From the NCBI GenBank assembly GCA_965369655.1, contig CBDUQR010000053.1, positions 1 through 17,052 on the forward strand: a DNA stretch of 17,052 nucleotides, in the 5' to 3' direction. This DNA is from an uncultured bacterium (lineage in GTDB: Bacteria; Zixibacteria; MSB-5A5; JAABVY01; JAHJOQ01). Under the pieces are notes generated by a model. The model was not told where the DNA came from. It saw nothing but the letters and a program-made list of their open reading frames with translations, and searched no databases. How positions within the stretch are numbered: position 1 is the stretch's first letter; every line of letters begins with the position of its first letter. This document shows, one piece after another, positions 3,351 through 16,646 of the stretch. Both the position numbers and the translations under genes were made by a program.

Positions 3351-3363
3351 CACAGTCCTCTCG

Positions 3364-3518
3364 GAGGCTGTTTCATAAGTTCTGTCCTCCTGTAGGTCGG
3401 CGTTCCGCAGCAGGCGGAGCCTGCGAGAAACCCGACTGCCGGTCAACAAGATAGAGGTGTCGCGTTTCTCATCGCGCTCTGCGGGATTCGGAACACGACC
3501 TACTTATGAGACAACCTC
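3364..3518. mobile_element. MITE-like element: 17-bp imperfect TIRs enclosing an inverted GTAG-type REP doublet
   Basis: GAGGCTGTTTCATAAGT (3364-3380) and ACTTATGAGACAACCTC (3502-3518) are 15/17 inverted. Inside, GTAGGTCGGCGTTCC at 3392 and GGAACACGACCTAC ending at 3503. Inverted homolog at 11072-11226. Confidence 0.75.
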
Positions 3519-3536
3519 TCTTACACTTACCGCACA

Positions 3537-3565
3537 AATCTATCCTGCGACAAGTGCACCGTCAA
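3537..3565 (-). promoter_or_regulatory. Putative sigma70 promoter of ftsK
   Basis: Minus strand TTGACG (3565-3560), 17-nt spacer, TAGATT (3542-3537). Confidence 0.5.
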
Positions 3566-3594
3566 CTAAAACAGTCAAATGTAGTGGCTTCAAA

Positions 3595-6500
3595 TCAGTT
3601 GAAGAGAGTTCCGCGCAGCGGTGATTTTGACTTCTCGAACTTGATGTCGGGTATCTGCTTAACGAACAACTTAAAGTAATATCCTTTAAGGCTTCCGTTC
3701 GGAATCCAGGAAAATCGCGCCTCCCAGCAGTGAAGATCTCGGACGATATTGATTGATCGACTGACAATCAGCTTCCTGCGAATATCGTAGTTCTGTGAAA
3801 TATCGACGTGCCAGTTTCTTGTCAGATCGAAACTCGCCGAACTCGTGATCCAGTGAGTGATGCTCTTTGCGCCCGTGATAAGATTCCGACTCTCCGTATA
3901 CCTGTGTCCGAAGTTCGCGCTCCACGGCATCTTTAGAGACGAACCAGGTCGCTCAACATTTCGGCCATCCAGATCATCCGGCGAAGACGCGCCGCGCCTG
4001 CCGTGCATCGAAAAACCGGAGCTCACGCTGATATTTGTAAGCCTGGCTCGAAACGGGTCGAAGTCGAGTGTCACCGGATTGTACAGATCGTGGGTCGCCT
4101 GCAACTGTATCGACAGCCGAGGAATCGATGTCGTCCTGAGCGATGTCGAGAGCTTCGACCACTTGCGTTCCTCTCTTGTGAAGTCGTAACTCGTCGAGGT
4201 CGACAGATTGAACAGATCGAGTTTCTTCTCAGTCTCACCCGACTTGTATTTCATCTGAAAGAGATTCGACAACGAAACGCTCATCGACTTGCTCTCGGTA
4301 CGGGAACTACTCGCGCCAACATACCCCGCTTCATCAGCATTCAAAACTGACTTGGGTCGGTACGAATACGACAGTGACGGACTCATCGAGTGCCTGATAC
4401 CGATCAGACCAGGAATCGGCGGGAAGAAATAACCATAGAGAGTTGTCCTCGCCGACATCGACATGCTTGACGTCCAACTCCTCAGGAACTTGTCAGATTT
4501 GAGCTCTTGCTCATCGGATATATCGGTCGGGAAAATCATGAACCAATTCTCTGTGAAGTTAACCGAAGGGTTCATCGTGATATATCTGAATAGATTCTGC
4601 GGCGCGCTCAGCGAGGTCCTGTGCGTTCCTCTGGCATATTTCCTGCGACTGAAATCGTCGCCGCTTTTGCTCTTCGACTGATAATTCCTGAAATCTGAAC
4701 TGTACGACAAGCGAATGGACTGATACCAGCGCTGATCCGATTTCTCGCTACCCTCAGGTTGCGGGAAAAGAGTTCGTGATCCGAGCGAGAATCGAAGGCT
4801 GGGAGCGGTCAGCGAACTCGATTCATCGTCGAGATTCTTCGTACTTTGTACCACCGCGCTCAAAGACGTCCGCTCCCATCGCTTGGAGAAGCTGATCTGA
4901 CTCCGCAGATTTCTGTTGCGGCGCTCATCGATATCGTTGGATATCTCGGTCGTATAACTCTTGTCGGACACGAATGTCCCGCTTCCCGAAATCGACGCGG
5001 TCGGTGAAAGCGTGTGCGAATGGTTGGCTGTCAGCGACCACCTGTGAGAGATAGTGCGCCCGGAATAACTCGTCCTCGAATCCCGTGCATACGACCCCCT
5101 GACCGAACCGCGCATCACATACCGCTTGGCGTAGTTGACCGTGCCGTCAAACTTGACTCCGATCCGCTCTTCGAGACTCATCGCAGCATCCATATCCCAG
5201 TACTCTGACGCCGCCCAGTAGTATCCGAGATTGCGGACATAACGACCGCCCCGCTCCCATGTGCCGATATGAAATGGAAGGAATCCCGAATGGCGTCCCT
5301 TCTTGATCGAGAACACGAAAAACGGCGCATAGAAAACCGGTATCTGTTCGATGTAGAGAATGATGGGTCTGGCGATGACTCGATCGCCGCTGATCAATTT
5401 CATGTTGCTGGAACCGAAGTGGTAATGTGGCACATCCAGATCGCATGTCGTATAGCGCCCCTTGTCGACCAGCAGCACATCCTCTTCCATCTTCCGCACA
5501 GTCTCACCGTGGTAATACGCGTTCTCCAATTCAGTGTCAGTCTCTCTGACCTTGCCCCTCTTTGTTTCGAGATTGTATGCCAATCTGTCGCCGGTCATTT
5601 CATCGGTCCCATCCCGCAGGACCACCGGCACGAAAACCGTATCCAGCACAACTTTTTCGTCTTCACCAATCTCTTCAGTATCGTCGATTTCGTTCACATA
5701 TAGAGCCGAATACGCCCGCAGGTCCTTGGATACAGTGTTATAAATGATTGTGTCGGCGTTCAGCGTGATCGTCTTGTTCCTGACTTCTGATGCGCCCGAT
5801 AACCGAATAATGCGATCGCCGGTTGCGTAGTTGAGGTTAGCGGATTCATACTTTACCGTGTCGAGATAACTGATATTGCCGAGCGAATCGAGTTCCCTCT
5901 GCGAGAAGAATTTGCCGACACATGAGTTGTTTACCTCTACGTGATCGAGTCCGCTTTTCTCGAAGAAGAGAAGAATCGAATCACCTGAGACCTCGTTCAT
6001 TCCCTCCGCAAGCGTATCCTCGGGCGCAGGCAAATACCAGGAGTAGCTATTGCCTGCCGACACGATTTTCTTCAGAACTTCACTCTCGAAATAGAATCGG
6101 ATGCTCTTCGCCTCGATCCGGCTTTCCGTGAACACAGTATCAATGACACCGACGGGACTGCGGTACAGTGCGCATCCGTTGCCAGAGACAAAGAGCTGAT
6201 CCAGCAATCGATTCTTCAGCGAGATCGTCATGGTATCGCCATCAAGCTCGTTATTGCGCTGTTGCGCGCGGGGATCGCCATACAGGACGATCCGGTTGGA
6301 GTCGGGAAAGAACTCACAAAGATCGCATGTTGCGCGCATGCTGCTCTTGGTGATTACAACATTGTCGATGGCGCGACCCTGCCGGATCGGCGACACATAG
6401 TGCAGGGTATCGGATGAAATACCAATCATCGCCGCCGGATCATCGTAATCAACCATCAGGTGTGGCGAGCCGGTCGCTGTCAACTCCTCAGAATTCCTGT

Positions 6501-6885
6501 CATAATCGATTTTCTCGCCCGTGATTTTGACCCGCTCATCCCTGACCAGAATCTCGCAGTCACCGGTCGCATGAAATCTGTTCTCATCTTCGAGATACTT
6601 GAGATAAGTCGAACTCAGATGATGCATTGAATCTGCGTACCTGACGTTGCCCCAGAATTCGAGGACGCCCCTGCTCTGGTGGTAGACCGCCGTGTCGCAG
6701 AGCAGATTGCCCCCCTTGTAGTCGAATTTCACATTATCATAGTACCGCAGCTCGAATTCGTCTTCGCCTGTGATCCTGATCTCCGAATGATCGGCGTTGA
6801 GCAGAAGCTCATCCTTGTCGGAACCAGGCAGGCGCGAACCGATCAATAGGATACAAAGAAGTGACCAGACGATATGTTTCTTCAT
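3595..6885 (-). CDS. lptD: LptD-like LPS-assembly outer-membrane protein with extended OstA/LptA-like N-terminal region (~1096 aa)
   Basis: Signal peptide MKKHIVWSLLCILLIG. Repeated beta-jellyroll-like segments ('LYGDPRAQQRNNELDGDTMTI', 'GDRLAYNLETKRGKV'), LptD motifs 'GRYTTCDLDVPHYHF' and 'KKGRHSGFLPF', barrel end 'IVRDLHCWEARFSWIP...DIKFEK'. Confidence 0.88.
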   Translation of the reverse strand: MKKHIVWSLLCILLIGSRLPGSDKDELLLNADHSEIRITGEDEFELRYYDNVKFDYKGGNLLCDTAVYHQSRGVLEFWGNVRYADSMHHLSSTYLKYLEDENRFHATGDCEILVRDERVKITGEKIDYDRNSEELTATGSPHLMVDYDDPAAMIGISSDTLHYVSPIRQGRAIDNVVITKSSMRATCDLCEFFPDSNRIVLYGDPRAQQRNNELDGDTMTISLKNRLLDQLFVSGNGCALYRSPVGVIDTVFTESRIEAKSIRFYFESEVLKKIVSAGNSYSWYLPAPEDTLAEGMNEVSGDSILLFFEKSGLDHVEVNNSCVGKFFSQRELDSLGNISYLDTVKYESANLNYATGDRIIRLSGASEVRNKTITLNADTIIYNTVSKDLRAYSALYVNEIDDTEEIGEDEKVVLDTVFVPVVLRDGTDEMTGDRLAYNLETKRGKVRETDTELENAYYHGETVRKMEEDVLLVDKGRYTTCDLDVPHYHFGSSNMKLISGDRVIARPIILYIEQIPVFYAPFFVFSIKKGRHSGFLPFHIGTWERGGRYVRNLGYYWAASEYWDMDAAMSLEERIGVKFDGTVNYAKRYVMRGSVRGSYARDSRTSYSGRTISHRWSLTANHSHTLSPTASISGSGTFVSDKSYTTEISNDIDERRNRNLRSQISFSKRWERTSLSAVVQSTKNLDDESSSLTAPSLRFSLGSRTLFPQPEGSEKSDQRWYQSIRLSYSSDFRNYQSKSKSGDDFSRRKYARGTHRTSLSAPQNLFRYITMNPSVNFTENWFMIFPTDISDEQELKSDKFLRSWTSSMSMSARTTLYGYFFPPIPGLIGIRHSMSPSLSYSYRPKSVLNADEAGYVGASSSRTESKSMSVSLSNLFQMKYKSGETEKKLDLFNLSTSTSYDFTREERKWSKLSTSLRTTSIPRLSIQLQATHDLYNPVTLDFDPFRARLTNISVSSGFSMHGRRGASSPDDLDGRNVERPGSSLKMPWSANFGHRYTESRNLITGAKSITHWITSSASFDLTRNWHVDISQNYDIRRKLIVSRSINIVRDLHCWEARFSWIPNGSLKGYYFKLFVKQIPDIKFEKSKSPLRGTLFN

Positions 6886-6892
6886 GTCGATG

Positions 6893-6921
6893 AGTTTAAT
6901 CGATGCGCCGGATCGTCGCAA
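6893..6921 (-). promoter_or_regulatory. Putative sigma70 promoter, leaderless geometry (lptD)
   Basis: TTGCGA (6921-6916), 17 nt, TAAACT (6898-6893), 7 nt, ATG 6885. No SD. Confidence 0.5.
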
Positions 6922-7034
6922 CAAAAATGGATGCTGCCGGATGATGCTCCCACTGCTTATACAACAATGAGCGGGATGGTTTCCTTCGCATGGAGTAAGT
7001 TCTGCATTGCGCGGCCGTCCGAATGAACGTGATT

Positions 7035-7997
7035 CTACCGCATCAGTTCGTTGAGATGAATCGATACCGACCGCGCGAGAGTGTCGAGGTCGTAGCCGCC
7101 TTCGAGTACCGAAACCAGCCGTCCGGATGCTGAAATGTCTGCGGCTCTCATGGCAAGCCGTGTCATCTTCACGAAACCACTGTCAGAAACAGACAGCCCT
7201 GCCAGAGGATCGCTTTCGTGCGCGTCAAATCCGGCGGATATGAGTATCAGCTCCGGCTTGAACTTCTCCATCTCCGGCAGCCAGAACACTTCCAACGCGG
7301 CAAGAAATTCTTCGTCACCGGAACCGGCAGAAAGCGGGAAATTCAGCGTGAATCCCTCGCCATCGCCCTCACCTTTCTCCCCTGCCGACCCGCTGCCGGG
7401 ATAGAACAGAAACTGATGGACGCTCGTATAATGAACGCTGCGATCCGAATAGAATGCATTCTGAGTTCCGTTACCGTGATGAACGTCCCAGTCGAGAATT
7501 GCTACTCTGTCAATACCAAGTCGTTCGCGGGCGTAAGCTGCGCCAATCGCGATGTTGTTGAACAGGCAAAACCCCATCGGATGGTCGTATTCGGCGTGAT
7601 GACCCGACGGGCGCACAGCACAGAATGCGGAATCGAGATCGCCATCGACTACTCGCTTCACCGCCTCGACTACAGCGCCTGCGGCGTATCGGGCAGATTC
7701 GTACGACGCCGAACAGTAGTATGTATCACCATCAAACCAGCCATTCCCTTTGGCGCAGGCGTCGGCTATCCGTGAGACGTGTGCCTTTGAGTGAATCAAT
7801 CGTATGATGTCGGTTTCTGCGAGAGGCGGGCTGACTTCGTGGAGTCTATCCAGCATGCCGCTGCGCTTTAGCGTTTCGGTTATGGCTGCAACTCTTTCGG
7901 GACGTTCGGGATGGTACCCTGACGATTCGTGACGCAGGAATGAATCATGGTAGGCAAATCCGACCCGTCTCACGCGCGCGGAATCATGAGCTTTCAT
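7035..7997 (-). CDS. Zn-dependent histone deacetylase family protein (HDAC class II / AcuC / APAH-like)
   Basis: HPERPER, RPSGHHAE, GFCLFNNIA, DWDVHHGNGTQ, YPGSG, SAGFDAH, LEGGY. Start ATG 7997 (alternative GTG 8003). Confidence 0.95.
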   Translation of the reverse strand: MKAHDSARVRRVGFAYHDSFLRHESSGYHPERPERVAAITETLKRSGMLDRLHEVSPPLAETDIIRLIHSKAHVSRIADACAKGNGWFDGDTYYCSASYESARYAAGAVVEAVKRVVDGDLDSAFCAVRPSGHHAEYDHPMGFCLFNNIAIGAAYARERLGIDRVAILDWDVHHGNGTQNAFYSDRSVHYTSVHQFLFYPGSGSAGEKGEGDGEGFTLNFPLSAGSGDEEFLAALEVFWLPEMEKFKPELILISAGFDAHESDPLAGLSVSDSGFVKMTRLAMRAADISASGRLVSVLEGGYDLDTLARSVSIHLNELMR

Positions 7998-8004
7998 TGA
8001 CACA

Positions 8005-8034
8005 AATATACGAGCGTCCGCTCGACATTGTCAA
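8005..8034 (-). promoter_or_regulatory. Putative sigma70 promoter, leaderless geometry (HDAC), with palindromic spacer
   Basis: TTGACA (8034-8029), 18 nt, TATATT (8010-8005), 7 nt, ATG 7997. The spacer contains CGAGCG-TC-CGCTCG (8011-8024). Confidence 0.6.
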
Positions 8035-8059
8035 GTTCACATATCGAATTCAGATGCAG

Positions 8060-8134
8060 GGTGCCCCATAGCTTGCTATGGGATATGAGAAATGATCCCA
8101 CAGTTGAGGTGCCCCATAGCTTGCTATGGGATAT
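8060..8134 (+). repeat. Two exact 27-bp direct repeats with hairpin (REP-like, flanking the RAYT remnant)
   Basis: GGTGCCCCATAGCTTGCTATGGGATAT at 8060-8086 and 8108-8134, hairpin CCCATAGC-TT-GCTATGGG, 21-nt spacer. A related inverted copy is split across 8352-8362 and 8562-8577. Confidence 0.9.
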
Positions 8135-8149
8135 ATAAACTTGTATACT
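8121..8149 (+). promoter_or_regulatory. Putative promoter of the RAYT remnant; -35 lies inside the second repeat
   Basis: TTGCTA (8121-8126), 17 nt, TATACT (8144-8149), 7 nt, ATG 8157. Confidence 0.55.
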
Positions 8150-8156
8150 GACTTCA

Positions 8157-8350
8157 ATGACTCGACTCCGACATTACGACGACCTGGGTACCGCAAGATT
8201 CGTTACTGTCATAACAATCCCGTCAAACGAGGATTGGTGGCGTCTCCGGGTGAATGGCGCTGGTCCAGTTGGGGATGTTATCATGGTGCTGAAGATGTTC
8301 CTTTGGTCGTGGATGTTGATGAATGGTGTGCAGCAGTCGTATCTAACTGA
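8157..8350 (+). pseudogene. Internally deleted REP-associated tyrosine transposase (RAYT/TnpA-REP, Y1 HUH family)
   Basis: N-terminus MTRLRHYDDLGTARFVT (8157-8207) joined out of frame to YCHNNPVKRGLVASPGEWRWSS (from 8204), the typical RAYT C-terminal Y-x-H-x-NPV-x-x-GL...W-x-WSS motif. The HUH core is missing. Confidence 0.82.
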
Positions 8351-8362
8351 ACCCATAGCAAG

Positions 8363-8561
8363 GAGGTTGTCCCAAAAGATCCGAAAAGCAGGTAATCATG
8401 TTTGCGAAAGAAAATAGCGTCATTCCCGCGAAGGCCCTTCGCTGTGCTCAGGATATTACGGGAATCCATTGAATGCGTTACCGTTGAATAGACTCCCGCC
8501 TCCGCGGGAGTGACATGGTCGGCTTCTCGCTTGAGTTGAATAGCACTTTTGGGACAACCTC
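8363..8561. mobile_element. MITE-like element with perfect 16-bp TIRs inserted at the centre of a palindrome
   Basis: GAGGTTGTCCCAAAAG (8363-8378) and CTTTTGGGACAACCTC (8546-8561), flanked by CCCATAGCAAG and CTTGCTATGGG. Cargo is an inverted pair GTCATTCCCGCGAAGGC..GGGAATCC (8419-8467) and GACTCCCGCCTCCGCGGGAGTGAC (8491-8514). Confidence 0.8.
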
Positions 8562-8704
8562 CTTGCTATGGGGCACCGGACACGTCTGCCGCCCACTATG
8601 TTTGCCCTATGTCCGGCACATGTGGACACAAGTCCTGAGTTTCGTCGGTCGCCGATCCCGATCCCCGAGGGAAAGGATGTGCCGCTTACCACCCAATATT
8701 CACA

Positions 8705-8733
8705 TTGAAAAGAATGGATCGAATCGTTATCTT
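8705..8733 (+). promoter_or_regulatory. Putative sigma70 promoter for the mutase-SRPBCC unit
   Basis: TTGAAA (8705-8710), 17 nt, TATCTT (8728-8733). Confidence 0.4.
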
Positions 8734-8751
8734 CTCGTGTTGAGTAGTTGA

Positions 8752-8827
8752 GTAGGTCATGCCAGCTTGGGGCGTGACATTCTGGTTACATGTTTTACTT
8801 CTCACGTCCCAAGCGGACGTGAGCTAC
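8752..8827. repeat. Inverted GTAG-REP doublet (REPIN-like)
   Basis: GTAGGTCATGCCAGCTTGGGGCGTGA (8752-8777) versus the reverse complement of 8801-8827, GTAGCTCACGTCCGCTTGGGACGTGAG. Confidence 0.7.
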
Positions 8828-8912
8828 AAGAGTTTGCTCTATGTTCTGCACATGTGGACATGTACTGGGCACGAAGGATAAACGATGATGTTAAGCTTAG
8901 CAGGGATAGAAA

Positions 8913-10574
8913 ATGAATAAGGATACGCTGGAAGAAATCAGAAAACGCAAGGCCGAGTGGAGCGAAAAAGCCCAGGTTGCGTCCGACAGGAAATGGGTTA
9001 CGGTATCATCCGCGCCAATCGATCCACTCTATACACCGGACAATAACGGCAGCCGCGATTATATCAAGGACGTAGGTTTCCCGGGTGAATACCCATATAC
9101 GCGCGGCGTTCATGCCTCCATGTATCGCGGCAGGATGTGGACAATGCGCCAGTTCTCCGGCATGGGTACTCCTGCAGAGACAAACAAGCGATACCACATG
9201 CTTCTGAACGCAGGGCAGCATGGTCTCTCCGTGGCGTTCGACCTGCCCACGCTGATGGGTTACGACTCCGATCATGAGCGTTCGCTCGGTGAAGTCGGCA
9301 AATGCGGCGTTGCAGTCGACACGCTTCTCGACATGGAGATCATATTCAAGGGAATCGACGTCGGAAAGATTTCGACCTCGATGACAATCAACGCTCCCGC
9401 GAGTGTTCTCCTCGCGATGTATCTTGTCGTCGCCGAGAAAAAGGGCGTGCCGTATGAGAAAGTCCGGGGCACTCTGCAGAATGACATCCTGAAGGAATAC
9501 ATCGCTCAGAAAGAATGGATATACCCACCGGAACCATCGATCAGGCTCATCACCGACCTGATGGGGTTCTGCGCCGATCATGTGCCGCAGTGGAATACAA
9601 TCTCGGTATCTGGCTATCACATCCGGGAGGCTGGAGCGACCGCCGTGCAGGAACTCGCGTACACGCTTGCGGATGGTTTTGCGTATGTCGAAGCCGCGAT
9701 GGACGCCGGTCTCGATGTCGACACTGTCGCGCCGAGAATATCACACTTTTTCAACGCACACATGGATTTCTTCGAGGAAATCGCCAAGTATCGCGCCGCT
9801 CGCAGGATCTACGCGCGCCGCATGCGTGAAAAGTATGGCGCAAAGAAAGAGCAGTCGTGGAAGATTCGATTCCATACACAGACAGCAGGATGTTCGCTGA
9901 CCGCGCAGCAACCGGAACTGAATCTCGTACGCACTGCGACCGAAGCGCTCTCCGCAGTTCTCGGTGGGACACAATCGCTGCACACCAACTCGATGGATGA
10001 GACTCTGGCATTGCCGTCGGACAAGGCCGCCAGACTTGCGTTGAGAACCCAGCAGGTAATTGCCCACGAGACAGGCGTCGCCAACACGATCGACCCGCTC
10101 GCCGGATCGTATTTCATCGAGGCGCTGACCGACAGGATGGAAGAGGAATGTCTCAGGATTTTCGACGAGATCGACGCTCGCGGCGGCGTTCTCAAGTGCA
10201 TCGAGGAAGGCTACTTCCAGCGCGAAATAGCCAGGTCGGCATATGTATATCAGCGGGAGATTGACAAGAAAGAACGCATAATCGTCGGCGTCAATGGTTT
10301 CATTCTGGAAAATGAAGAGATCGATATTCCCGTGCTCGAGATAGATGATGCGACATCGAGAGATCAGCAACTCGCTTCGATTAAGAAAGCGAAGGAAATG
10401 CGCGATAATGATAAGGTGAAGCGCGCCCTGGCCGATCTGACGAAAGCTGCCACTGACGGCAGCAACACCATGCCGCGAATCATCGAGTGCGTCAGGTGCT
10501 ACGCTACCGAGGGTGAGATCAGCGACGCCATGAAAGAGGTCTTCGGCGAGTATGTCGAGCTCCCTATCATCTAA
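8913..10574 (+). CDS. icmA: Acyl-CoA mutase large (substrate-binding) subunit, isobutyryl-CoA mutase (IcmA)-like
   Basis: MCM-family motifs [39 protein letters not shown]. Phe81 (RQF) and Gln199 (YIAQKEW) occupy the Tyr89/Arg207 positions of MCM. No DxHxxG B12 domain. Family is secure; substrate is inferred. Confidence 0.8.
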   Translation: MNKDTLEEIRKRKAEWSEKAQVASDRKWVTVSSAPIDPLYTPDNNGSRDYIKDVGFPGEYPYTRGVHASMYRGRMWTMRQFSGMGTPAETNKRYHMLLNAGQHGLSVAFDLPTLMGYDSDHERSLGEVGKCGVAVDTLLDMEIIFKGIDVGKISTSMTINAPASVLLAMYLVVAEKKGVPYEKVRGTLQNDILKEYIAQKEWIYPPEPSIRLITDLMGFCADHVPQWNTISVSGYHIREAGATAVQELAYTLADGFAYVEAAMDAGLDVDTVAPRISHFFNAHMDFFEEIAKYRAARRIYARRMREKYGAKKEQSWKIRFHTQTAGCSLTAQQPELNLVRTATEALSAVLGGTQSLHTNSMDETLALPSDKAARLALRTQQVIAHETGVANTIDPLAGSYFIEALTDRMEEECLRIFDEIDARGGVLKCIEEGYFQREIARSAYVYQREIDKKERIIVGVNGFILENEEIDIPVLEIDDATSRDQQLASIKKAKEMRDNDKVKRALADLTKAATDGSNTMPRIIECVRCYATEGEISDAMKEVFGEYVELPII

Positions 10575-10594
10575 CCAGTAACCTGGACCGTCCA

Positions 10595-11029
10595 ATGCAG
10601 GGAACTGCCTCCGTATCTCGGGCGATCGAAGTCACCGCAATTATCAACTCGTCTGTTGAGGAGATATTCAACTATCTAACTTCCGCGCCACTTCTCGCCA
10701 GATGGCTTTGCAGGAAAGCCGAAAGCAATCCTGTAAAGGGAGGCGACTACGCATTGTGGCTGGAGACTGAGAGCGAAGATAAGCCGGACATCTACGGCCA
10801 GTTCATCAATTTCGTTGAGAACAAGACAGTTCAGTATGTTTGGATCGACACTGCACAGCGGTTCAACTCACTCGTTACCGCAGTGTTAAATCAGAAACCA
10901 GACGGCATCAGGATCGATCTCTACCACACCAGCCTGCCGATCGAAGAAAGCTACGACGAGTTATACTACTCCTACGCGAAGTTCTGGAAGAATGCGTTCG
11001 ACAGACTGATCGAGCATCTCTCAGATTAG
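10595..11029 (+). CDS. SRPBCC (AHSA1/START-like) domain protein
   Basis: 'INSSVEEIFNYLTSAPLLARW...GGDY...VQYVW...VTAVL...DLYH...FWKNAFDRLIEHL' pattern. 20 nt downstream of the mutase. Confidence 0.8.
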   Translation: MQGTASVSRAIEVTAIINSSVEEIFNYLTSAPLLARWLCRKAESNPVKGGDYALWLETESEDKPDIYGQFINFVENKTVQYVWIDTAQRFNSLVTAVLNQKPDGIRIDLYHTSLPIEESYDELYYSYAKFWKNAFDRLIEHLSD

Positions 11030-11071
11030 AAGTATACCTGTATACTGAAAAGACTGGCAAGAGGGTGGGAT

Positions 11072-11226
11072 GAGGCTGTCCAAAAAGTAGGTCGTGTTCC
11101 GAACCTAATGTAATTCGGTCGCTGATCCCGATCCCCGAGGGACAGGTGAGAAACGCGACACTTCTATCTTATTGCTCTGGAGTCGGGTTTCTTGCAGGCT
11201 TCGCCTGCTGCGGAACACCGACCTAC
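11072..11226. repeat. Second copy of the 3364-3518 element (inverted), one clear TIR, with an extra internal module
   Basis: GAGGCTGTCCAAAAAGTAGGTCGTGTTCCGAA...TGAGAAACGCGACAC...GCCTGCTGCGGAACACCGACCTAC is colinear with the reverse complement of 3518-3392. It lies between convergent genes. Confidence 0.8.
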
Positions 11227-11258
11227 TGGAAAACTCTGAAATACGGGGAAGACCATCC

Positions 11259-12320
11259 TCACGGACTCAGTGCGATGCTGATACCACCCCTGATCGATGA
11301 CCATTCGGCCTTCACAGCTGCATCGATGTTCCTGTACGTGACCGGCGGATCGTCGAGGAATGTCTGCTCCTGATGACCTGATGCAGTGACAAACTCATAC
11401 GTAAATCCGGCCCAGAGACTCAAGGCACCCTCGGTCCGATATGTTAGTTGCAGGTCGACAAGTCCGGCGGTGCCGGTCGAGGCGGAGATTCTCGAATCCT
11501 TCGGTGGATCGCGGACAAGATGATTGTCCAGATCGTCTACCCTGGCTACTGGCGAACCGAGCGCCGTAATCTCCGCCTCCAATCCGAAAGGAAACGCATA
11601 GGCAATCGTGGCGCCTGCATACAGCGTTTTGTATTCGATCTCATATCTGAGCACTTCTGTGGACTTGTCCAAAGTCGTCGTGACAGGCTCATCGAGATAC
11701 ACAAGCCAGGCCTCAAAGTAAGAACCGACAGTCGCGGTGTCGATTATATAATCATTGATCTGCTCCAGACCTCGCTCTACGAATTCCATCTTGACATACC
11801 TGAGTCGCAATCGTGGCGTGATGGTAAATCTGCCGGTATCGAAACGAAAGCCTGCATCCGCTTCGAAGAACGATGTCTGATCGTCGTTTTCAGCCTCTCC
11901 GATTACCCACATTTTCTGCGATCCGTTTCGCTCATACCAATCGTAATCCTTGAACACACCCTTCTCGTTGGCGAACTGAAGTCCCAGACGAACGGAAAGC
12001 ATGAAACGGCTGTATTCTGCCGACACCGAAAACAATCCCAACGTCGAATTGACCGGGAATCGAAGCCTGCTTCTGAGAGGAACGAACGGTCCGTCAATAC
12101 TACCCAGTCGTATATGACCGGCATCGATTTCATACTCAGTATAACCATCAAGGAAAGCCGTTCCCGCGCTGAGCTGGAAACGGAGCTTCACATTGCTGCC
12201 TATTCCAATAGAGCCCGAAGTCGCAGCTCCGACTTCCTGAGCGGACAGACAGGTCACACTCAAAACCGATGACACAGCCAACAACGCAAGTGTCGTCAGG
12301 GCGATTAGCGACAATTTCAT
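11259..12320 (-). CDS. Omptin-family outer-membrane protease-like beta-barrel
   Basis: Signal peptide, 'SRLRFP' (cf. SQLDW), D125-Y-D127-W and D265-N-H267-L-V-R matching the omptin catalytic pairs (OmpT D83/D85, D210/H212), amphipathic strands. Confidence 0.72.
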   Translation of the reverse strand: MKLSLIALTTLALLAVSSVLSVTCLSAQEVGAATSGSIGIGSNVKLRFQLSAGTAFLDGYTEYEIDAGHIRLGSIDGPFVPLRSRLRFPVNSTLGLFSVSAEYSRFMLSVRLGLQFANEKGVFKDYDWYERNGSQKMWVIGEAENDDQTSFFEADAGFRFDTGRFTITPRLRLRYVKMEFVERGLEQINDYIIDTATVGSYFEAWLVYLDEPVTTTLDKSTEVLRYEIEYKTLYAGATIAYAFPFGLEAEITALGSPVARVDDLDNHLVRDPPKDSRISASTGTAGLVDLQLTYRTEGALSLWAGFTYEFVTASGHQEQTFLDDPPVTYRNIDAAVKAEWSSIRGGISIALSP

Positions 12321-12719
12321 CTACTCCTCCAACTCTATGAGCACTCCTAATGTCGATTTCGGATGAAGAAAAGCGACAGACTTATCATCAGCGCCCGGCC
12401 GTGGTTCTTTATCGATCAACTGAACGCCATCCGCCGCCATCAGGTCAAGCGTTGCCTTCAGATCATCAACATGGAGCGATATATGGTGCAACCCCTCTCC
12501 CCTTTTTTCGAGATACTTGTTAAGATTCGAATTCTCATCGAGCGGGGCGATCAACTCGATCCTGATATTCGGCAGGTCGAGAAACGCAACCTTCACTCCC
12601 TGCGACGAGACTTCTGTCACTTCACTGGCGGGAATACCGAGCAGCCGCGAGAAGAGTTCGAGACTGCTATCGAGGTCACGCACGGCAATCGCAATATGAC
12701 TCAGGCTTTTCACGCTCAT
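12321..12719 (-). CDS. mce: Methylmalonyl-CoA epimerase (VOC fold)
   Basis: HIAIAV, QGVKVAF, IELIAP, GEGLHHI, FLHPKSTLGVLIEL. ATG 12719 overlaps the mutase stop (TAATG). Confidence 0.95.
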   Translation of the reverse strand: MSVKSLSHIAIAVRDLDSSLELFSRLLGIPASEVTEVSSQGVKVAFLDLPNIRIELIAPLDENSNLNKYLEKRGEGLHHISLHVDDLKATLDLMAADGVQLIDKEPRPGADDKSVAFLHPKSTLGVLIELEE

Positions 12720-14272
12720 TACAGAATCACGCTTTCTCTGAACTCGCCCCAGACCTCCCTCAGAACATCTGAGATTTCGCCGACAGTGCAATAAGCTTCC
12801 ACGCAATCGAGAATGTACGGTATCAGGTTTTCGCTGGATGCAGCCTTGCTCTTCAGTCGCGACAGAGACGAGTTTACAATCGCGCTGTCTCTCGAATCGC
12901 GAACTTCAGCGAGTCGCTGTGACTGTTCCTCGCGCAGTTTCGGATCGACCCGCAAAATCTGCGAATCCCCGTCATCATCGACCTCAAACCTGTTGACTCC
13001 CACGACCACGCGATCACCCGACTCGACCTTTTTCTGATATTGATACGCCGCCTTCTGAATCTCAGACTGGTAAAAACCGCTCGCGGCAGCCTTCAGCGCG
13101 CCGCCCATCTCATCTATCTTGCTAATGTATTCTGAAGCTTCATTTTCGATGCTGTCGGTCAACGACTCGATGCAATAACTGCCCGCCAGCGGATCGGCAG
13201 TCTCTGCAATCCCCGATTCAAACCCTATGATCTGCTGAATTCGCAGCGCGGTCTGAGCCGTCCGCTGGGTCGGAAGACCGAGCGCCTCGTCTTCCGAGTT
13301 CGTATGAAGCGACTGGGTTCCGCCGAGCACAGCCGCGAGCGCTTCAAGCGTTGTCCTGATGACATTGATCTCCGGCTGCTGAGCGGTCAGCGAAGACCCG
13401 GCTGTTTGAGTATGGAACCTCAGCATCATTGACTTCGGATTTGTGGCGCCGAATCGGTCTTTCATTATCCGCGCCCACATTCGCCGCGCCGCTCGAAACT
13501 TGGCAACTTCTTCGAGAAAATCCTGATGCGCATTGAAGAAAAACGAAAGCCTTGGCGCGAACTTGTCGACATCGAGTCCGCGCGAAAGTGCAGCTTCGAC
13601 ATATGCGATTGCGTTCGATAACGTGAACGCTATCTCCTGCACTGCGGTCGAACCAGCCTCGCGAATGTGATAGCCTGATATCGAGATCGTATTGTATCGC
13701 GGTAGGTTCTGCTCAGCGTATTCGAATATGTCGCAGATCAATCGCATCGATGGTTCCGGCGGATAAATATAGGTCCCGCGCGCGATATATTCTTTCAGGA
13801 TGTCGTTCTGCACCGTCCCGGTGATCTTCTCAGGTGGAACCGATTGCTTCTTCGCGACGGCGATATACATACAGAGAAGAATCGCCGCGGTCGCATTGAT
13901 GGTCATCGACGTTGAAACTTTGTCGAGAGGAATTCCGTCAAAGAGTATCTCGAAATCCTTCAGGCTGTCGACTGCGACTCCTGTCTTGCCAACCTCGCCT
14001 TCCGCCATCGGGTGGTCGGAGTCATATCCGATCTGCGTCGGGAGATCGAACGCCACAGACAGCCCGGTCTGACCCTGCTCCAGAAGATAGCGATACCGTT
14101 TGTTGGATTCGACAGCCGTCCCGAAACCGGCGTACTGCCGCATCGTCCAGAGACGTTTCGTATACATACCGGGATATACTCCGCGAGTGAACGGATACTC
14201 TCCCGACTGCTCGGAAACGTCTTTTCCAGCAACATCTGCTGCCGTGTAGATAGTTTTCCTGGATTCAGTCAT
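12719..14272 (-). CDS. Methylmalonyl-CoA mutase large (substrate-binding) subunit, split type
   Basis: [10 protein letters not shown] (Tyr47) and [10 protein letters not shown] (Arg165) are the MCM-specific pair. No B12-binding domain. Adjacent to mce. Confidence 0.93.
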
Positions 14273-14290
14273 ATCTAATTCAGCACGGAG

Positions 14291-14797
14291 CTATTTGAGC
14301 CTGACGAGGCAATCGCCCTTGTCGACCGACTGACCCGGTTTGACAAGTATTTCCGCGATCTCACCATCGATTTCAGCCTTCAACTCGTTCTCCATTTTCA
14401 TCGCCTCGATGATAATAACACCTTCGCCCTTCGCTATCGATTCACCGACATCCTTCAGCAGGCTCGACACAAGACCCGGCATGGGAGATGTGATTTCTTT
14501 GTGGCCGTCGTTCGACATCTCGATACCGGCGACTTCGCGAAGTTTCGCGAGACGTTCATCCTCAGCGAACACCTCGAACTCGCGTCCATAGATGAAAACC
14601 GAGAACTTCCCGTCCTTGCGGTTCACCTCGACATCGTATGACATCGAATCGATCAGCATCAGGAAACGGTGCTTGTTTTTTCGCGTGGTGCAGCGGAACT
14701 CAATCGGTGTGCCATCGACATTCAGCGTTGTCCCCTCGCTTTTGTCATCGAGGTCGATGATATACTCACTGTCCTGTATCTTCGCCAGATAGCTCAT
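14291..14797 (-). CDS. Biotin carboxyl carrier subunit of an acyl-CoA (probably propionyl-CoA) carboxylase
   Basis: SPMPG and EAMKMEN biotinylation motif. ATG 14797 overlaps the upstream stop (TAATG). Confidence 0.92.
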   Translation of the reverse strand: MSYLAKIQDSEYIIDLDDKSEGTTLNVDGTPIEFRCTTRKNKHRFLMLIDSMSYDVEVNRKDGKFSVFIYGREFEVFAEDERLAKLREVAGIEMSNDGHKEITSPMPGLVSSLLKDVGESIAKGEGVIIIEAMKMENELKAEIDGEIAEILVKPGQSVDKGDCLVRLK

Positions 14798-16317
14798 TAG
14801 CCATTCTCCATCGGCTTGCGGAGTCCGGCGACTCTGCCGGATGCTTTCCACCGGGAACTCTCTCCGCGTGCCGAACCGCCCGTCGATATGCGTTTGGATT
14901 CGAGAAAATCGTAGAAGCATGCCGCGACGGCAGCAGCTTTCAGGATATGCTCCTCGTCATGCACAGCGTACTTGCGATCCTCGAAATGGTCGTCAATGAA
15001 GTGGGTCGACAGGTCGCCCTTGCGAAACGCGTCATGATCCATTACTGTTTCGTGAAAAGCAATCGCCGTCGACACCCCGCATATCCTGTACTCCGATAGC
15101 GCGCGTTTCATCCTGAGAATCGCTTCGTCGCGAGTCGCTCCCCATGCGCAGAGCTTGGAGATCATCGGGTCGTAGTAGATCGGAATCTGTGATCCCTCGA
15201 CGACACCCGAGTCGACCCTGATCCCCGGGCCGGAGGGCTCACGGTACGATTTCAGTTCGCCTGTCGATGGCATGAAGTTGTTGTCGGGATCCTCGGCATA
15301 TATGCGGCACTCAATCGCATGACCTCGAATCGTGATGCTCTTCTGATCGAACGACAGCTTTCCGCCATCTGCCACGTTGATCTGCTCTTTGACCAGATCG
15401 ATGCCGGTGATGAGTTCCGTCACAGGATGCTCGACCTGAAGTCTCGTGTTCATTTCGAGGAAATAGAAATTCCTGTCATTGTCCGCGAGAAACTCGACCG
15501 TGCCGGCATTCACATAGCCGCACGATCTCGCAGCCTCGATTGCTGCCTTGCCCATCCTCTCGCGCATTTTCTTATCTACCAGCGGCGATGGCGCCTCTTC
15601 GATAACTTTCTGATGCCGCCGCTGGATCGAGCATTCGCGCTCGCCGAGATAGACACAGTTGCCGTGAGAATCCGCCATGATCTGGATTTCGATATGTCGA
15701 GGTTTCATTATGTATTTCTCGATGTATACTCTATCATCGCCGAACGCGTTCTTCGCCTCCGATGCTGCGCCTCTGTATGCCGATTCGAGATCTTCAGGAG
15801 CGTGCACAGTGCGCATACCCTTGCCGCCACCGCCTGCTGCCGCCTTGATCAGAATCGGATAGCCGATCTTATCGATCTCGGGCCGCAGCGACTCGATGTC
15901 ATCGATTGCCTTCTTGAATCCGGGCACGACGGGAACGTCCGATGCCGTGACGGCACGTCTCGCGGCAAGCTTGTCGCCCATGACCTCGATAGCCTTCGCA
16001 GGGGGACCGATCCAAATAAGCCCGGCGTCTGTGACCATCTGCGCGAACTTCGCATTTTCAGCGAGGAATCCGTAGCCGGGATGAATCGCGTCGGCGCCTG
16101 CTTTCTTCGCGACATCGATGATCTTCTCACCGACGAGATAGCTCTCGGACGATGGCGATGGTCCGATATGATATGCCTCATCCGCCATGCGAGTGTGAAA
16201 AGCGTCGGCGTCGGCATCAGAGAATACAGCGATAGTCGCAATACCGAGTTCACGGCACGACCGCATCACCCGAATCGCGATCTCACCTCTGTTCGCTATG
16301 AGAACCTTCTTAATCAT
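14797..16317 (-). CDS. accC: Biotin carboxylase subunit (AccC/PccA-like)
   Basis: IANRGEIA, HPGYGFLAEN, GGGGKGMR, ERECSIQRRHQK, EMNTRLQVEHPVTE, RVDSG, YYDPMISK. Confidence 0.93.
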   Translation of the reverse strand: MIKKVLIANRGEIAIRVMRSCRELGIATIAVFSDADADAFHTRMADEAYHIGPSPSSESYLVGEKIIDVAKKAGADAIHPGYGFLAENAKFAQMVTDAGLIWIGPPAKAIEVMGDKLAARRAVTASDVPVVPGFKKAIDDIESLRPEIDKIGYPILIKAAAGGGGKGMRTVHAPEDLESAYRGAASEAKNAFGDDRVYIEKYIMKPRHIEIQIMADSHGNCVYLGERECSIQRRHQKVIEEAPSPLVDKKMRERMGKAAIEAARSCGYVNAGTVEFLADNDRNFYFLEMNTRLQVEHPVTELITGIDLVKEQINVADGGKLSFDQKSITIRGHAIECRIYAEDPDNNFMPSTGELKSYREPSGPGIRVDSGVVEGSQIPIYYDPMISKLCAWGATRDEAILRMKRALSEYRICGVSTAIAFHETVMDHDAFRKGDLSTHFIDDHFEDRKYAVHDEEHILKAAAVAACFYDFLESKRISTGGSARGESSRWKASGRVAGLRKPMENG

Positions 16318-16325
16318 AAGATTAT

Positions 16326-16354
16326 ACTATAACCGAATTACGCGCAATCCGCAA
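16326..16354 (-). promoter_or_regulatory. Putative sigma70 promoter, leaderless geometry (carboxylase-mutase operon)
   Basis: TTGCGG (16354-16349), 17 nt, TATAGT (16331-16326), 8 nt, ATG 16317. No SD. Confidence 0.5.
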
Positions 16355-16399
16355 GCAGATAGAAGTTGACAGCATTCACACTCGTGCTCGTCGGGGATA

Positions 16400-16646
16400 C
16401 ATCTTGTGGGCGGCAGACGTCAAAAGGCTGTCCCAAAAGTGCCACTCAACTTGAGCAGAAAGCTGACCCTGTCGCTCCCGCGGAGGCGGGAGCCTATTTA
16501 ACGATAACGCATTCAATAGATTCCCGCCTGCGCGGGAATGACATGAGCGAAGCCTTCGTCATCACGAGGAGCGACAGCGACGTGGTGATCTCATATTGTG
16601 GGCGGCAGACGTCCGCGCAAGTCCTGAGCTTCGAAGGGTCTGCCCC
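16400..16646. repeat. Composite repeat cluster with a second copy of the 8363-8561 element
   Basis: 16424-16542 aligns to the reverse complement of 8561-8419 (102/119 by hand count, excluding a 24-nt insert). Direct repeats TTGTGGGCGGCAGACGTC at 16404-16421 and 16596-16613. Hairpin GTCATCACGAGGAGCGACAGCGACGTGGTGATCTC at 16558-16592. Confidence 0.85.

Follow-up and report, generated by a model that had tools for sequence, protein, structure and literature searches.

A single type of 16-bp end, GAGGYTGTCYCAWAAG, bounds at least four unrelated interiors in the genome of this uncultured member of the Zixibacteria, and the MITEs that it delimits, which have no coding capacity, transpose like DDE elements; this conclusion is supported by exact 4-bp TSDs at 36 of 60 pairs of ends, against 0.23 expected. 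The ends are the TIRs of IS1182-family insertion sequences found across Zixibacteria, and the autonomous parents, with the same ends and targets, are 1.5-kb IS1182-family elements in related Zixibacteria. It is likely that MITEs of this type captured REP doublets once per family and then amplified them as passengers of DDE transposition.

Elements in the Window

The window (the whole 17,052-nt stretch analysed) contains intact and decayed elements of two families, A and B, together with related repeats and a gene remnant (Table 1). All six copies of the 16-bp end claimed in an earlier note on this DNA are present, against 0.06 expected by chance, and none of 200 shuffles reached six. That note had the ends bordering two cargo types (its type 1 is interior B, its type 2 interior A), which is true of the intact MITEs at 3364 and 8363, but the 11.1- and 16.4-kb copies each keep one recognisable TIR. 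The two diverged copies that it described for each type are real, with 81% complementarity for family B (3388-3495 versus 11123-11230) and 85% for family A (8459-8560 versus 16425-16526), although the number of families genome-wide is at least four.

Table 1. Positions of repeat elements, 16-bp ends and the RAYT remnant in the window
Feature	Position	Strand	Details
16-bp end	3364-3379	+	
16-bp end	3503-3518	-	
16-bp end	8363-8378	+	
16-bp end	8546-8561	-	
16-bp end	11072-11087	+	1 mismatch
16-bp end	16424-16439	+	1 mismatch
Intact family-B MITE	3364-3518	+	155 bp; TIRs 3364-3379, 3503-3518
Two identical 27-nt copies, GGTGCCCCATAGCTTGCTATGGG	8060-8086, 8108-8134	+	
RAYT (REP-associated tyrosine transposase) remnant	8141-8347	+	Translations, protein and profile matches
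Split REP palindrome, CCCATAGCAAG / CTTGCTATGGG	8352-8572	.	Encloses family-A MITE
Intact family-A MITE	8363-8561	+	199 bp; TIRs 8363-8378, 8546-8561
Free-standing 27/28-nt mini-repeat copy	8645-8672	+	Unit also nested in 11.1-kb element
Decayed family-B element	11072-11226	-	One TIR 11072-11087; REP doublet 11087-11226
Decayed/rearranged family-A element, 175-type	16424-16542	-	One TIR 16424-16439; both hairpins

The MITE at 3364 lies between lptD and ftsK, with the ftsK start codon 10 nt downstream; its interior is a 12-nt spacer (3380-3391) followed by a GTAG...CTAC REP doublet (3392-3503). In the MITE at 8363, which is 96% identical to another copy (C13:22967-23165), one hairpin (8417-8466) is CGTC-tagged and has a 24-nt loop insert (8435-8458), and the inverted second hairpin is at 8491-8515. 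The split palindrome around this MITE is its target hairpin: 7 of 8 bases are complementary, and the palindrome arms plus the TIRs make a perfect 27-nt inverted repeat.

The paired GGTGCCCCATAGCTTGCTATGGG copies belong to the same palindrome family and lie across the RAYT remnant from it. In the remnant, which has an internal deletion, a C-terminal piece is in frame and the N-terminal-like start is read in another frame; the C31 RAYT aligns with it at 55% identity over 42 aa (E 4e-14), and it matches NF047646 positions 122-146 (E 1.2e-6, below the cut-off). The decayed family-B element has a 28-nt mini-repeat nested at 11115-11142, and its second TIR and spacer are unrecognisable. The decayed family-A element has no 24-nt insert and carries different repeat sequence in place of its far end; it lies between the two copies of a 22-nt direct repeat, at 16400-16421 and at 16592-16613.

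Target Sites and IS1182-Family Parents

With up to two mismatches allowed, the genome contains 178 copies of the motif, 120 of them forming 60 convergent pairs (modal lengths 155 bp, n = 15; 199 bp, n = 20; 173-176 bp, n = 10). The outcome that the earlier note had named as speaking against its reading, a mostly unpaired motif fixed in the REP consensus, is therefore not the case; of the 58 motifs without a partner, 37 belong to decayed copies of the four cargo families. The scan for pairs that the note proposed recovers at least four families, with interiors in clusters of 33, 22, 4 and 1 pairs that have only the TIR in common.

TSDs of lengths other than 4 bp were not enriched at the motif boundary in the 60 pairs, and 24 pairs lack an exact TSD. 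Palindromic targets (at least 6 of 8 bases complementary around a 4-nt loop) were found for 32 of 60 pairs versus 102 of 20,000 random sites; the other 28 fall below this level. The commonest target palindrome is a host repeat, GGCAGAYG-N4-CRTCTGCC, with insertion in the 4-nt loop, and at 43 unoccupied sites of this kind the loops (AGGA, TGGA, TCCT and TCCA) are the same as the TSDs. In the window, a REP that flanks a RAYT also serves as a target. The two intact copies there are both exceptions: the MITE at 3364 has a non-palindromic target and no exact TSD (CTCG versus TCTT), and the 4-mers flanking the MITE at 8363 are reverse complements of each other, not direct repeats. The main anatomical feature of these elements, which the earlier note does not mention, is that they insert into loops of other REP-like hairpins.

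Six complete IS1182-family copies (L022-L027; 1495-1571 bp, single ORFs of 465-496 aa) were identified in relatives, both TIRs matching the 16-bp end with at most one mismatch, in agreement with the likeness to IS1182-type TIRs put forward in the earlier note. Exact 4-bp TSDs flank L022 and L024, L023 and L026 sit between the hairpin halves GGCAGAC. and CGTCTGCC, and an 805-bp element (L040) with both TIRs is an internally deleted intermediate. The transposase of one element (G003:C79) scores 325.7 bits against NF033551 (cut-off 270), and the end of this element is followed by TCCT and CATCTGCCCC. No intact IS1182 transposase was found in this genome's assembly, where the sole IS1182 remnant (C69:3386-4270) has decayed into pieces in three frames. 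With 32% identity over 96 aa to the G003:C79 type, this remnant is of another IS1182 lineage, and since a truncated A-like end is some 230 nt away from it, its own ends are not proven. The proposal that a DDE transposase moves the doublets is largely right, given the TSDs and the parents in relatives, but an intact parent is missing here. In outline, an IS1182 DDE transposase supplied in trans would bind the TIRs, recognise a hairpin, whether extruded or not, and cleave the two strands of its loop 4 nt apart, so that insertion would duplicate the loop.

Another genome of the same genus (G001) has the orthologous site of the MITE at 3364 without the 155 bp, the empty counterpart that the earlier note had suggested looking for. 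The whole block 8043-8692, which includes the RAYT remnant and the family-A MITE, is absent from G001, and the 11072-11226 block has no match there. G001 contains 130 TIR motifs versus 2 for a control pattern; a parent IS had no match in it at E <= 1e-30. Among 41 genomes, full-length A and B composites were found in G000 and G001 only.

REP Cargos and Their Origin

Interior A consists of two inverted hairpins of the form TCCCGCG-loop-CGGGA, single copies of which also occur outside MITEs; the hairpin copy in the window is CGTCATTCCCGCG..CGGGAATC. The tag is CGTC in some copies only and NGTC in others, and we take these hairpins to resemble dRS3 in sequence. Two inverted REP units make up interior B, a GTAG...CTAC doublet of 112 nt. 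The link of REP doublets to RAYTs put forward in the earlier note holds for cargo B, in that a half-unit, GTAGGTCGGGTTCCGAA-hairpin-GAGAAACCCGAC, flanks a RAYT gene in a relative (G035; 120.5 bits against NF047646, cut-off 80) and is 83% identical to a B half over 60 nt (E 1e-12). It fails for cargo A, the TCCCGC hairpin being found at 0 of 35 Y1 loci. Neither B nor A units stand beside any RAYT-like gene of this genome, and no RAYT cognate to cargo B was found in the assembly, where the best matches to the G035 RAYT are 30-34% identical.

On the explanation that we favour, each family would go back to a single event in the ancestor of the genus that placed pre-existing REP or REPIN units between two TIRs, either by insertion of a REPIN into a short MITE or by capture of filler in gap repair, and the composites would then have been amplified via the DDE route. 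We infer the capture event; no intermediate of it was found. An unlikely alternative has the doublets as native parts of the MITEs that were never independent, with TIR-less copies as decay products and no HUH chemistry involved. At least one TIR does remain on 28 of 34 full-length B cores, about 36 of about 80 short and 22 of 32 long-form TCCCGC hairpins lie inside intact pairs, the genome has no cognate RAYT, and the small QMITE2 versions provide a precedent (excerpts of PMC5896051). Free B copies are also interspersed among TIR-bounded ones in a short-sequence tree, so some could derive from composites and not predate them. Yet the B unit stands on both sides of the G035 RAYT gene, and single B-type halves occur in five more genomes (G002, G004, G005, G022 and G035) in which no composite was found. 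Six of the 34 cores, moreover, are free copies that end exactly at GTAG/CTAC with null-level TIR and spacer flank scores and no 4-bp TSD, and divergence is greater among free copies (mean identity 0.78) than among TIR-bounded ones (0.87).

Many separate REP or REPIN insertions into a short, REP-attracting MITE, in place of one capture per family, would suit the variable position of the nested 27/28-nt unit among families A, B and C, and the 24-nt insert found in either family-A hairpin. This seems quite improbable, since all B composites have a single architecture (the doublet is separated from one TIR by a 12-nt spacer and overlaps the other by 1 nt), composites at different loci are nearly identical (identity up to 1.00) and the TSDs are located at the TIR boundaries. 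Scarcely credible is the idea that the 16-bp motif belongs to a REP/REPIN consensus, the whole unit being moved by a RAYT (HUH) and its likeness to IS ends incidental, even with four RAYT-like genes, a fused one and a remnant in the genome and 12 nt that the TIR core has in common with a REP beside a RAYT in genus g8, in the loop and stem of that REP. Target sites are not duplicated in single-strand transposition by HUH enzymes, whereas in 36 pairs a TSD begins exactly where the motif ends. Complete IS1182-family elements have this motif as their terminal repeat, and motif-bounded units flank none of 35 scanned RAYT loci. The TSDs and the autonomous IS copies contradict this reading, and it was rejected.

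Amplification through DDE transposition would mean that a RAYT-type substrate, and also a REP class not known to have a transposase, spread as passengers of another chemistry. The earlier note joined two mobility chemistries into one system, a step too far in that nothing shows functional coupling. Both drivers are missing or decayed in the assembly, so the copies may be fossils or may need unassembled IS copies.

Comparison with Known Systems

These are not a new kind of element: both IS1182 hairpin targeting and, in QMITE2, a MITE with a GTAG REP are already published. According to the excerpts of the reports used here, IS1272 and TnSha1 (IS1182 family, staphylococci) target hairpins and are like the present MITEs in relying on an IS1182-family DDE transposase, in having 16-bp TIRs and in that hairpin or palindrome structure, not primary sequence, sets the target (PMC5678879, PMC4923244). 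They delete or replace the target stem-loop and leave no TSD, whereas in this genome the stem survives insertion and the 4-nt loop is duplicated. In the model of Wan et al., one pathway duplicates the loop only, and the duplication seen here corresponds to this "pathway c", which in those excerpts is drawn but unobserved (PMC5678879, PMC4923244). The elements here further differ in being noncoding MITEs with REP cargo, in a different phylum.

Coxiella burnetii QMITE2, as far as the excerpts describe it, is likewise TIR-bounded, 150-190 bp long, with a GTAG REP inside and full-length TIR copies beside shorter, TIR-less, plain-REP-like ones (PMC5896051, PMC10969869), the small versions being suggested to be MITEs that lost their ends (PMC5896051). 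In those excerpts the direct repeats of QMITE2 measure 7-11 bp, there is a single cargo type and no parent IS is identified (PMC5896051, PMC10969869); its REP is the target of IS1111, and RAYT goes unmentioned in the excerpts of PMC5896051. The present MITEs, in contrast, have an identified parent family and themselves target the loops of REPs; a single TIR bounds at least four of their cargos, and the REP inside is linked to a RAYT in a relative.

Cargo B resembles REPIN-RAYT systems (Bertels and Rainey, PMC3116915; Nunvar, PMC2817692) in pairing two GTAG-tagged REP units, inverted and with a spacer, and in a unit that flanks a RAYT gene and free copies without TSD; most of its copies, however, are enclosed by DDE-type TIRs with TSDs, and the cognate RAYT was not found in the genome. 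Cargo A shares a tag, the stem-loop form and dimers with the CGTC-tagged REPs and Neisseria dRS3, CGTC REPs being without a dedicated transposase in the excerpts of Di Nocera et al. 2013 (PMC3733652). Unlike them, many cargo A copies ride in IS1182-type MITEs, and only some have the CGTC tag.

IS1397 and ISKpn1 are insertion sequences specific for REP palindromes. ISPpu9 (IS110 family; PMC12288879) likewise inserts specifically into REP palindromes; the transposases of all three come from families other than that of the MITEs here, and each is an autonomous element, not a MITE with REP cargo.

Shared terminal repeats and their hairpin targets

The 16-bp terminal inverted repeat (TIR) GAGGYTGTYYCAWAAG occurs six times in the window at up to two mismatches (0.06 expected by chance; none of 200 shuffled sequences reached six), at exactly the positions reported in the earlier note, as two convergent pairs and two unpaired copies (see table). 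In the whole genome (2.99 Mb on 100 contigs, of which the window is one entire contig, C53), the motif is found 82 times without mismatch, 140 times with at most one and 178 times with at most two. The earlier note had proposed a scan for paired ends with sorting of their cargo and had named a mostly unpaired motif, as a constant part of the REP consensus, as an outcome that would refute its reading. Convergent pairing accounts for 120 of the 178 sites, in 60 pairs that most often measure 199 bp (20 pairs), 155 bp (15) or 173-176 bp (10). Stripped of their TIRs, the interiors of the 60 pairs fall into four clusters, A (33), B (22), C (4) and S (1). Among the 58 unpaired motifs, 37 adjoin sequence of one of the four clusters and represent elements that have decayed or been truncated; the remaining 21 are the motif alone, mostly two-mismatch matches within coding DNA, and IS-like sequence follows none of the 58 in this genome. 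The 60 paired and 37 single-TIR copies assigned to families are multicopy, noncoding elements of 64-385 bp. An Rfam scan of the window returned no family match, leaving a reading of the elements as RNA genes without support.

Exact 4-bp target-site duplications (TSDs) abut the TIRs in 36 of the 60 pairs (0.23 expected), and direct repeats of other lengths at this boundary are at chance level. The flanks are commonly palindromic around the 4 bp, with at least six of eight positions complementary in 32 of 60 pairs versus 102 of 20,000 random sites. GGCAGAYG-N4-CRTCTGCC is the most frequent target; 43 unoccupied copies remain in the genome, and their loops (AGGA, TGGA, TCCT, and TCCA) are the most frequent TSDs. 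A target-type hairpin with a TCCA loop reads GGCAGATG-TCCA-CATCTGCC.

An exact TSD is missing in the other 24 pairs, including both intact copies in the window. The copy at 3364 is atypical in having neither an exact TSD nor a palindromic target. The copy at 8363 lies centrally in another palindrome, between CCCATAGCAAG and CTTGCTATGGG, and the 4-mers on its two sides are not directly repeated but reverse-complementary to each other. Such reverse-complementary flanks (TCCA/TGGA and CAAG/CTTG) were seen in three of the 24 TSD-less pairs (C17:22712, C18:28624, and window 8363); the insertion mechanism could produce them, as could recombination of copies sitting in hairpins of opposite orientation.

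Positions of repeat elements and associated features in the window
Feature	Position	Remarks
Convergent TIR pair, family B	3364/3518	155 bp
Convergent TIR pair, family A	8363/8561	199 bp
Unpaired TIR motifs	11072; 16424	
Cargo B copies	3388-3495; 11123-11230	81% complementary
Cargo A copies	8459-8560; 16425-16526	85% complementary
RAYT C-terminal piece (pseudogene remnant)	8141-8347	55% identity over 42 aa to C31 protein, E 4e-14
One palindrome family flanking the RAYT remnant	8060-8134 (two copies); 8352-8572 (one copy)	
Methylmalonyl-CoA mutase paralogues	9138-10148; 13139-14149	Opposite strands; 66% identical (DNA)
24-nt insert CCCTTCGCTKTGCTCAGGATAYYA	8435-8458	In loop of TCCCGCG hairpin
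22-nt direct repeat CATMTTGTGGGCGGCAGACGTC	16400-16421; 16592-16613	Brackets decayed family-A copy
27/28-nt mini-repeat TCGGTCGCYGATCCCGATCC(C)YGAGGGA	8645-8672; 11115-11142	

REP-type cargo of families A and B

Two sequences without relation to one another make up the interiors in the window, and each occurs once in either orientation. Cargo B, defined from an alignment of 22 copies, is a 112-nt unit with the ends GTAGGTCG and CGACCTAC and a GTAG tag; its two halves lie in inverted orientation, and both combine an outer stem with an inner hairpin that varies. This is a REP doublet, and its counterparts in relatives are linked to RAYT genes. In G035 a RAYT of 159 aa (120.5 bits against NF047646, cut-off 80) is bordered on either side by GTAGGTCGGGTTCCGAA-hairpin-GAGAAACCCGAC, which matches a B half at 83% identity over 60 nt; in G012 and G030 the REPs beside the RAYT share the tag and outer stem of B, and G004 has a RAYT with GTAGGTCG-tagged REPs. 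The REP nature of cargo B and its RAYT link in G035 are thereby shown, and its mobilisation by a RAYT is putative. The genome studied here has RAYT-like genes on C31, C76, C37, and C9; C76 lay outside the NF047646 scan and the other three pass it. No B or A unit was found beside any of these genes or beside the Y1 domain on C23, and the G035 RAYT has no close counterpart among them (identity 30%-34%).

Two observations concern the RAYT genes themselves. A Y1 (RAYT-like) domain lies within a 1072-aa ORF (L003, G000:C23:about 18996-22232) and within a 924-aa frame of G038:C86, and a tyrosine-transposase fold may here have been joined to a large protein. In genus g8, the RAYT-flanking REP GTAGGTCAGGTTGTCCCAACCTGAC (L066, G012:C31; L065, G030:C89) contains 12 consecutive bases, AGGTTGTCCCAA, identical to the IS1182 TIR, and the overlap keeps the same C/T variable position. 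The g8 genomes carry 5-9 such REPs (5, 6, and 9), with TIR motif counts near the control level; the overlap could reflect coincidence or shared ancestry.

Cargo B also occurs free of TIRs. The 34 full-length B cores in the genome comprise 21 with two TIRs, six with one and seven scored as having none, of which one is a mis-scored window copy, so that six are truly TIR-less. These six are bounded exactly by GTAG and CTAC, none has a 4-bp TSD, and their flanks are at null level for TIR and spacer. Traces of either, suspected by eye, were rejected against 3000 random sites in all six. Mean identity is 0.78 for the free copies versus 0.87 (up to 1.00) for TIR-bounded ones, among which the free copies are interspersed in a poorly resolved tree; the composites are the younger and more numerous copies. 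Across the genome, most TIR-bounded copies have TCCA or a similar tetranucleotide immediately 5′ of GTAG; in the six free copies these four nucleotides are TCCA (two), TCCC, TCAA, TCTT, and AGCA (one each). This tetranucleotide could be an HUH-type cleavage or target site, or part of the unit.

Cargo A is REP-like and is formed by two inverted TCCCGCG-loop-CGGGA hairpins, with both the stem-loop and the dimer form present; the window copy carries CGTC as its tag (8417-8420), and across copies the tag is NGTC. About 36 of some 80 short-form hairpins and 22 of 32 long-form hairpins lie inside intact pairs, the others outside. The TCCCGC hairpin was found at none of 35 scanned Y1 loci, in agreement with the statement of Di Nocera et al. 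2013 (PMC3733652) that CGTC REPs are without a dedicated transposase. The hybrid system envisaged in the earlier note, in which DDE-type ends surround RAYT-linked REP doublets, stands as regards the enclosure of REP doublets by DDE-type elements and the RAYT link of cargo B, and fails for a RAYT link of cargo A; the observation of that note is confirmed and its interpretation largely right.

The long form of the hairpin carries the 24-nt insert, which in family A may be located in hairpin 1 or hairpin 2 and is missing from the 175-bp form; its orientation relative to the hairpin is constant, and 10 of the 32 copies lie outside intact MITE pairs. At 16.4 kb, the 22-nt repeat corresponds to the left half of the target hairpin and stands where inverted halves are usual, suggesting rearrangement and not simple insertion.

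The RAYT remnant in the window matches NF047646 at positions 122-146 (E 1.2e-6, below the cut-off), with an N-terminal-like start in a different frame. MITE A is central in one of the palindromes flanking it, and a RAYT-flanking REP was therefore the target of a DDE-type MITE. The block containing the remnant and palindromes (8043-8692) is missing from G001, a genome of the same genus.

Parent elements, empty sites, and age

Complete elements with these ends, for which the earlier note had suggested a search, are present in relatives, and none is intact in the genome itself. In G003, of the same taxonomic family, a 444-aa transposase truncated by the contig start (C79) reaches 325.7 bits with NF033551 (cut-off 270). 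Its element ends in CTTGTGGGACAGCCTC, and TCCT and CATCTGCCCC come next; both the TIR and the target half are shared with the MITEs. Searched against 251 genomes of the phylum, the G003 protein has matches in 16 at E ≤ 1e-30. Six loci of relatives hold complete elements of 1495-1571 bp, each of which contains a single ORF (465-496 aa) and is bounded on either side by the motif, with no more than one mismatch; the proteins (L022-L027) are 46%-57% identical to that of G003:C79, to which alone the NF033551 score refers. Both ends of L023 are GAGGTTGTCCCAAAAG, identical to the window sites 8363 and 8561. Exact 4-bp TSDs flank two of the six (L022 and L024), and L023 and L026 sit between the halves GGCAGAC. 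and CGTCTGCC, so that the preference for palindromic or hairpin targets includes, besides the MITEs, the IS elements L023, L026, and G003:C79. An internally deleted copy of 805 bp (L040) keeps both TIRs. Comparison of IS interiors with MITE representatives revealed no common sequence beyond the 17-nt TIR; the MITE interiors are foreign REP-like cargo and do not derive from the ends of the parent IS.

A remnant in the genome, on C69, was considered as the parent of family A and rejected. Searches with Pfam DDE_Tnp_1 and the G003 transposase yielded no intact parent, only a remnant on C69, a weak match on C15 and an IS4-family remnant on C1; DDE_Tnp_1 alone yielded only the C69 and C1 remnants. 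The C69 remnant, the sole candidate transposase source and a decayed one, matches NF033551 positions 251-487 in three frames and lacks the N-terminal half; some 230 nt separate it from a truncated, motif-bearing end of A type. These 230 nt are unrelated DNA, and the remnant, with 32% identity over 96 aa to the G003:C79 type, belongs to another IS1182 lineage, because of which its position is not taken as proof of parentage of family A. The C1 remnant (L009, G000:C1:283325-284024) has an outer end, GAGAATGTTTCATAAG, that resembles the IS1182-type TIR with two mismatches; the transposase is of the unrelated IS4 family, and the end merely resembles the motif. Repeats are often left unassembled in metagenome-assembled genomes.

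The comparison of empty and filled sites proposed in the earlier note produced one clean case. The alignment of G001 stops at window position 3360 and restarts at 3518, without the 155 bp of 3364-3518: G001 (C241) reads ...CAGTCCTC-ATACACTTACCGCA... where the window reads ...CAGTCCTCTCG[155 bp]TCTTACACTTACCGCA... The window blocks 8043-8692 and 11032-11261 have no match in G001, with intergenic flanks too diverged for exact junctions, and the 16.4-kb site falls outside the comparison, as the matching contig (C47) aligns to window position 16362 and ends soon after. In the window, MITE B lies between lptD and ftsK and ends 10 nt before the ftsK start codon (window 3353-3364), immediately outside a Shine-Dalgarno-like GAGGA; because the element is absent from G001, the two genomes have different 5′ leaders at ftsK.

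G001 has 130 motif matches at up to one mismatch, versus two for a control pattern. Among 41 related genomes, full-length A and B composites were found in G000 (the genome itself) and G001 only, and single B-type REP halves occur alone in G002, G004, G005, G022, and G035. The composites are therefore young, of genus age, and the IS family and its TIR are phylum-wide.

Relation to known mobile elements

The usual view is that REPs and REPINs serve RAYT (HUH) enzymes alone as substrates and that MITEs are insertion sequences in shortened form. In this genome, several REP-type interiors with no relation to one another share a single set of DDE-type ends: a REPIN (cargo B) and a hairpin pair (cargo A) are cargo of IS1182-type MITEs. 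Selfish DNA of one class is here spread by machinery belonging to a different class, in a case that is concrete and open to testing. The MITEs would be mobilised in trans by an IS1182 transposase, with cuts probably staggered by 4 nt across the hairpin loop. Each cargo was probably captured once in the genus ancestor and later amplified by the DDE route; candidate routes of the cargo between the TIRs are REPIN insertion into a short MITE and filler capture in gap repair.

IS1272 and TnSha1 of the IS1182 family also target hairpins; there the stem-loop is deleted and no TSD is formed, whereas here the stem is kept and the loop duplicated (PMC5678879; PMC4923244). An alternative pathway with duplication of the loop alone was drawn, but not observed, by Wan et al. 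(PMC5678879; PMC4923244), and the present elements supply natural examples of this outcome. QMITE2 of Coxiella, as described in PMC5896051 and PMC10969869, is a MITE with TIRs, direct repeats, and an internal GTAG REP, and has small TIR-less, REP-like versions. The elements reported here are a variant of such known kinds. Among the literature matches listed, none describes several REP cargos within a single TIR family or REP cargo in an IS1182 MITE, and the library searched contains no paper that treats REPIN, RAYT, MITE, and DDE jointly. The practical weight is modest: this is an uncultured organism, its assembly lacks both drivers, and precedents have been published for every ingredient.

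The composites suggest a route for the multiplication of CGTC/dRS3-like REPs, for which Di Nocera et al. 2013 (PMC3733652) leave open what moves them. A wider reading, which we consider improbable, is that IS1182-type DDE transposases and REPs form a reciprocal network in which REP hairpins serve as preferred targets, as passengers, and perhaps as the evolutionary source of IS ends; the last role is conceivable because the TIR core has 12 nt in common with a RAYT-flanking REP. If the network were real, passenger transport by DDE-type MITEs could be a general and overlooked means of spread for orphan CGTC/dRS3-like REPs without a known transposase.

Other repeats in the window are of different kinds. 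The long inverted repeats I3-I5 are ordinary and reflect the paralogy of the two methylmalonyl-CoA mutase genes. The 27/28-nt mini-repeat has 63 blastn-short matches genome-wide and is nested within MITEs of families A, B, and C, where its position varies, as well as within TCCCGCG hairpin loops and further families of repeats; the same context is found both filled and empty.
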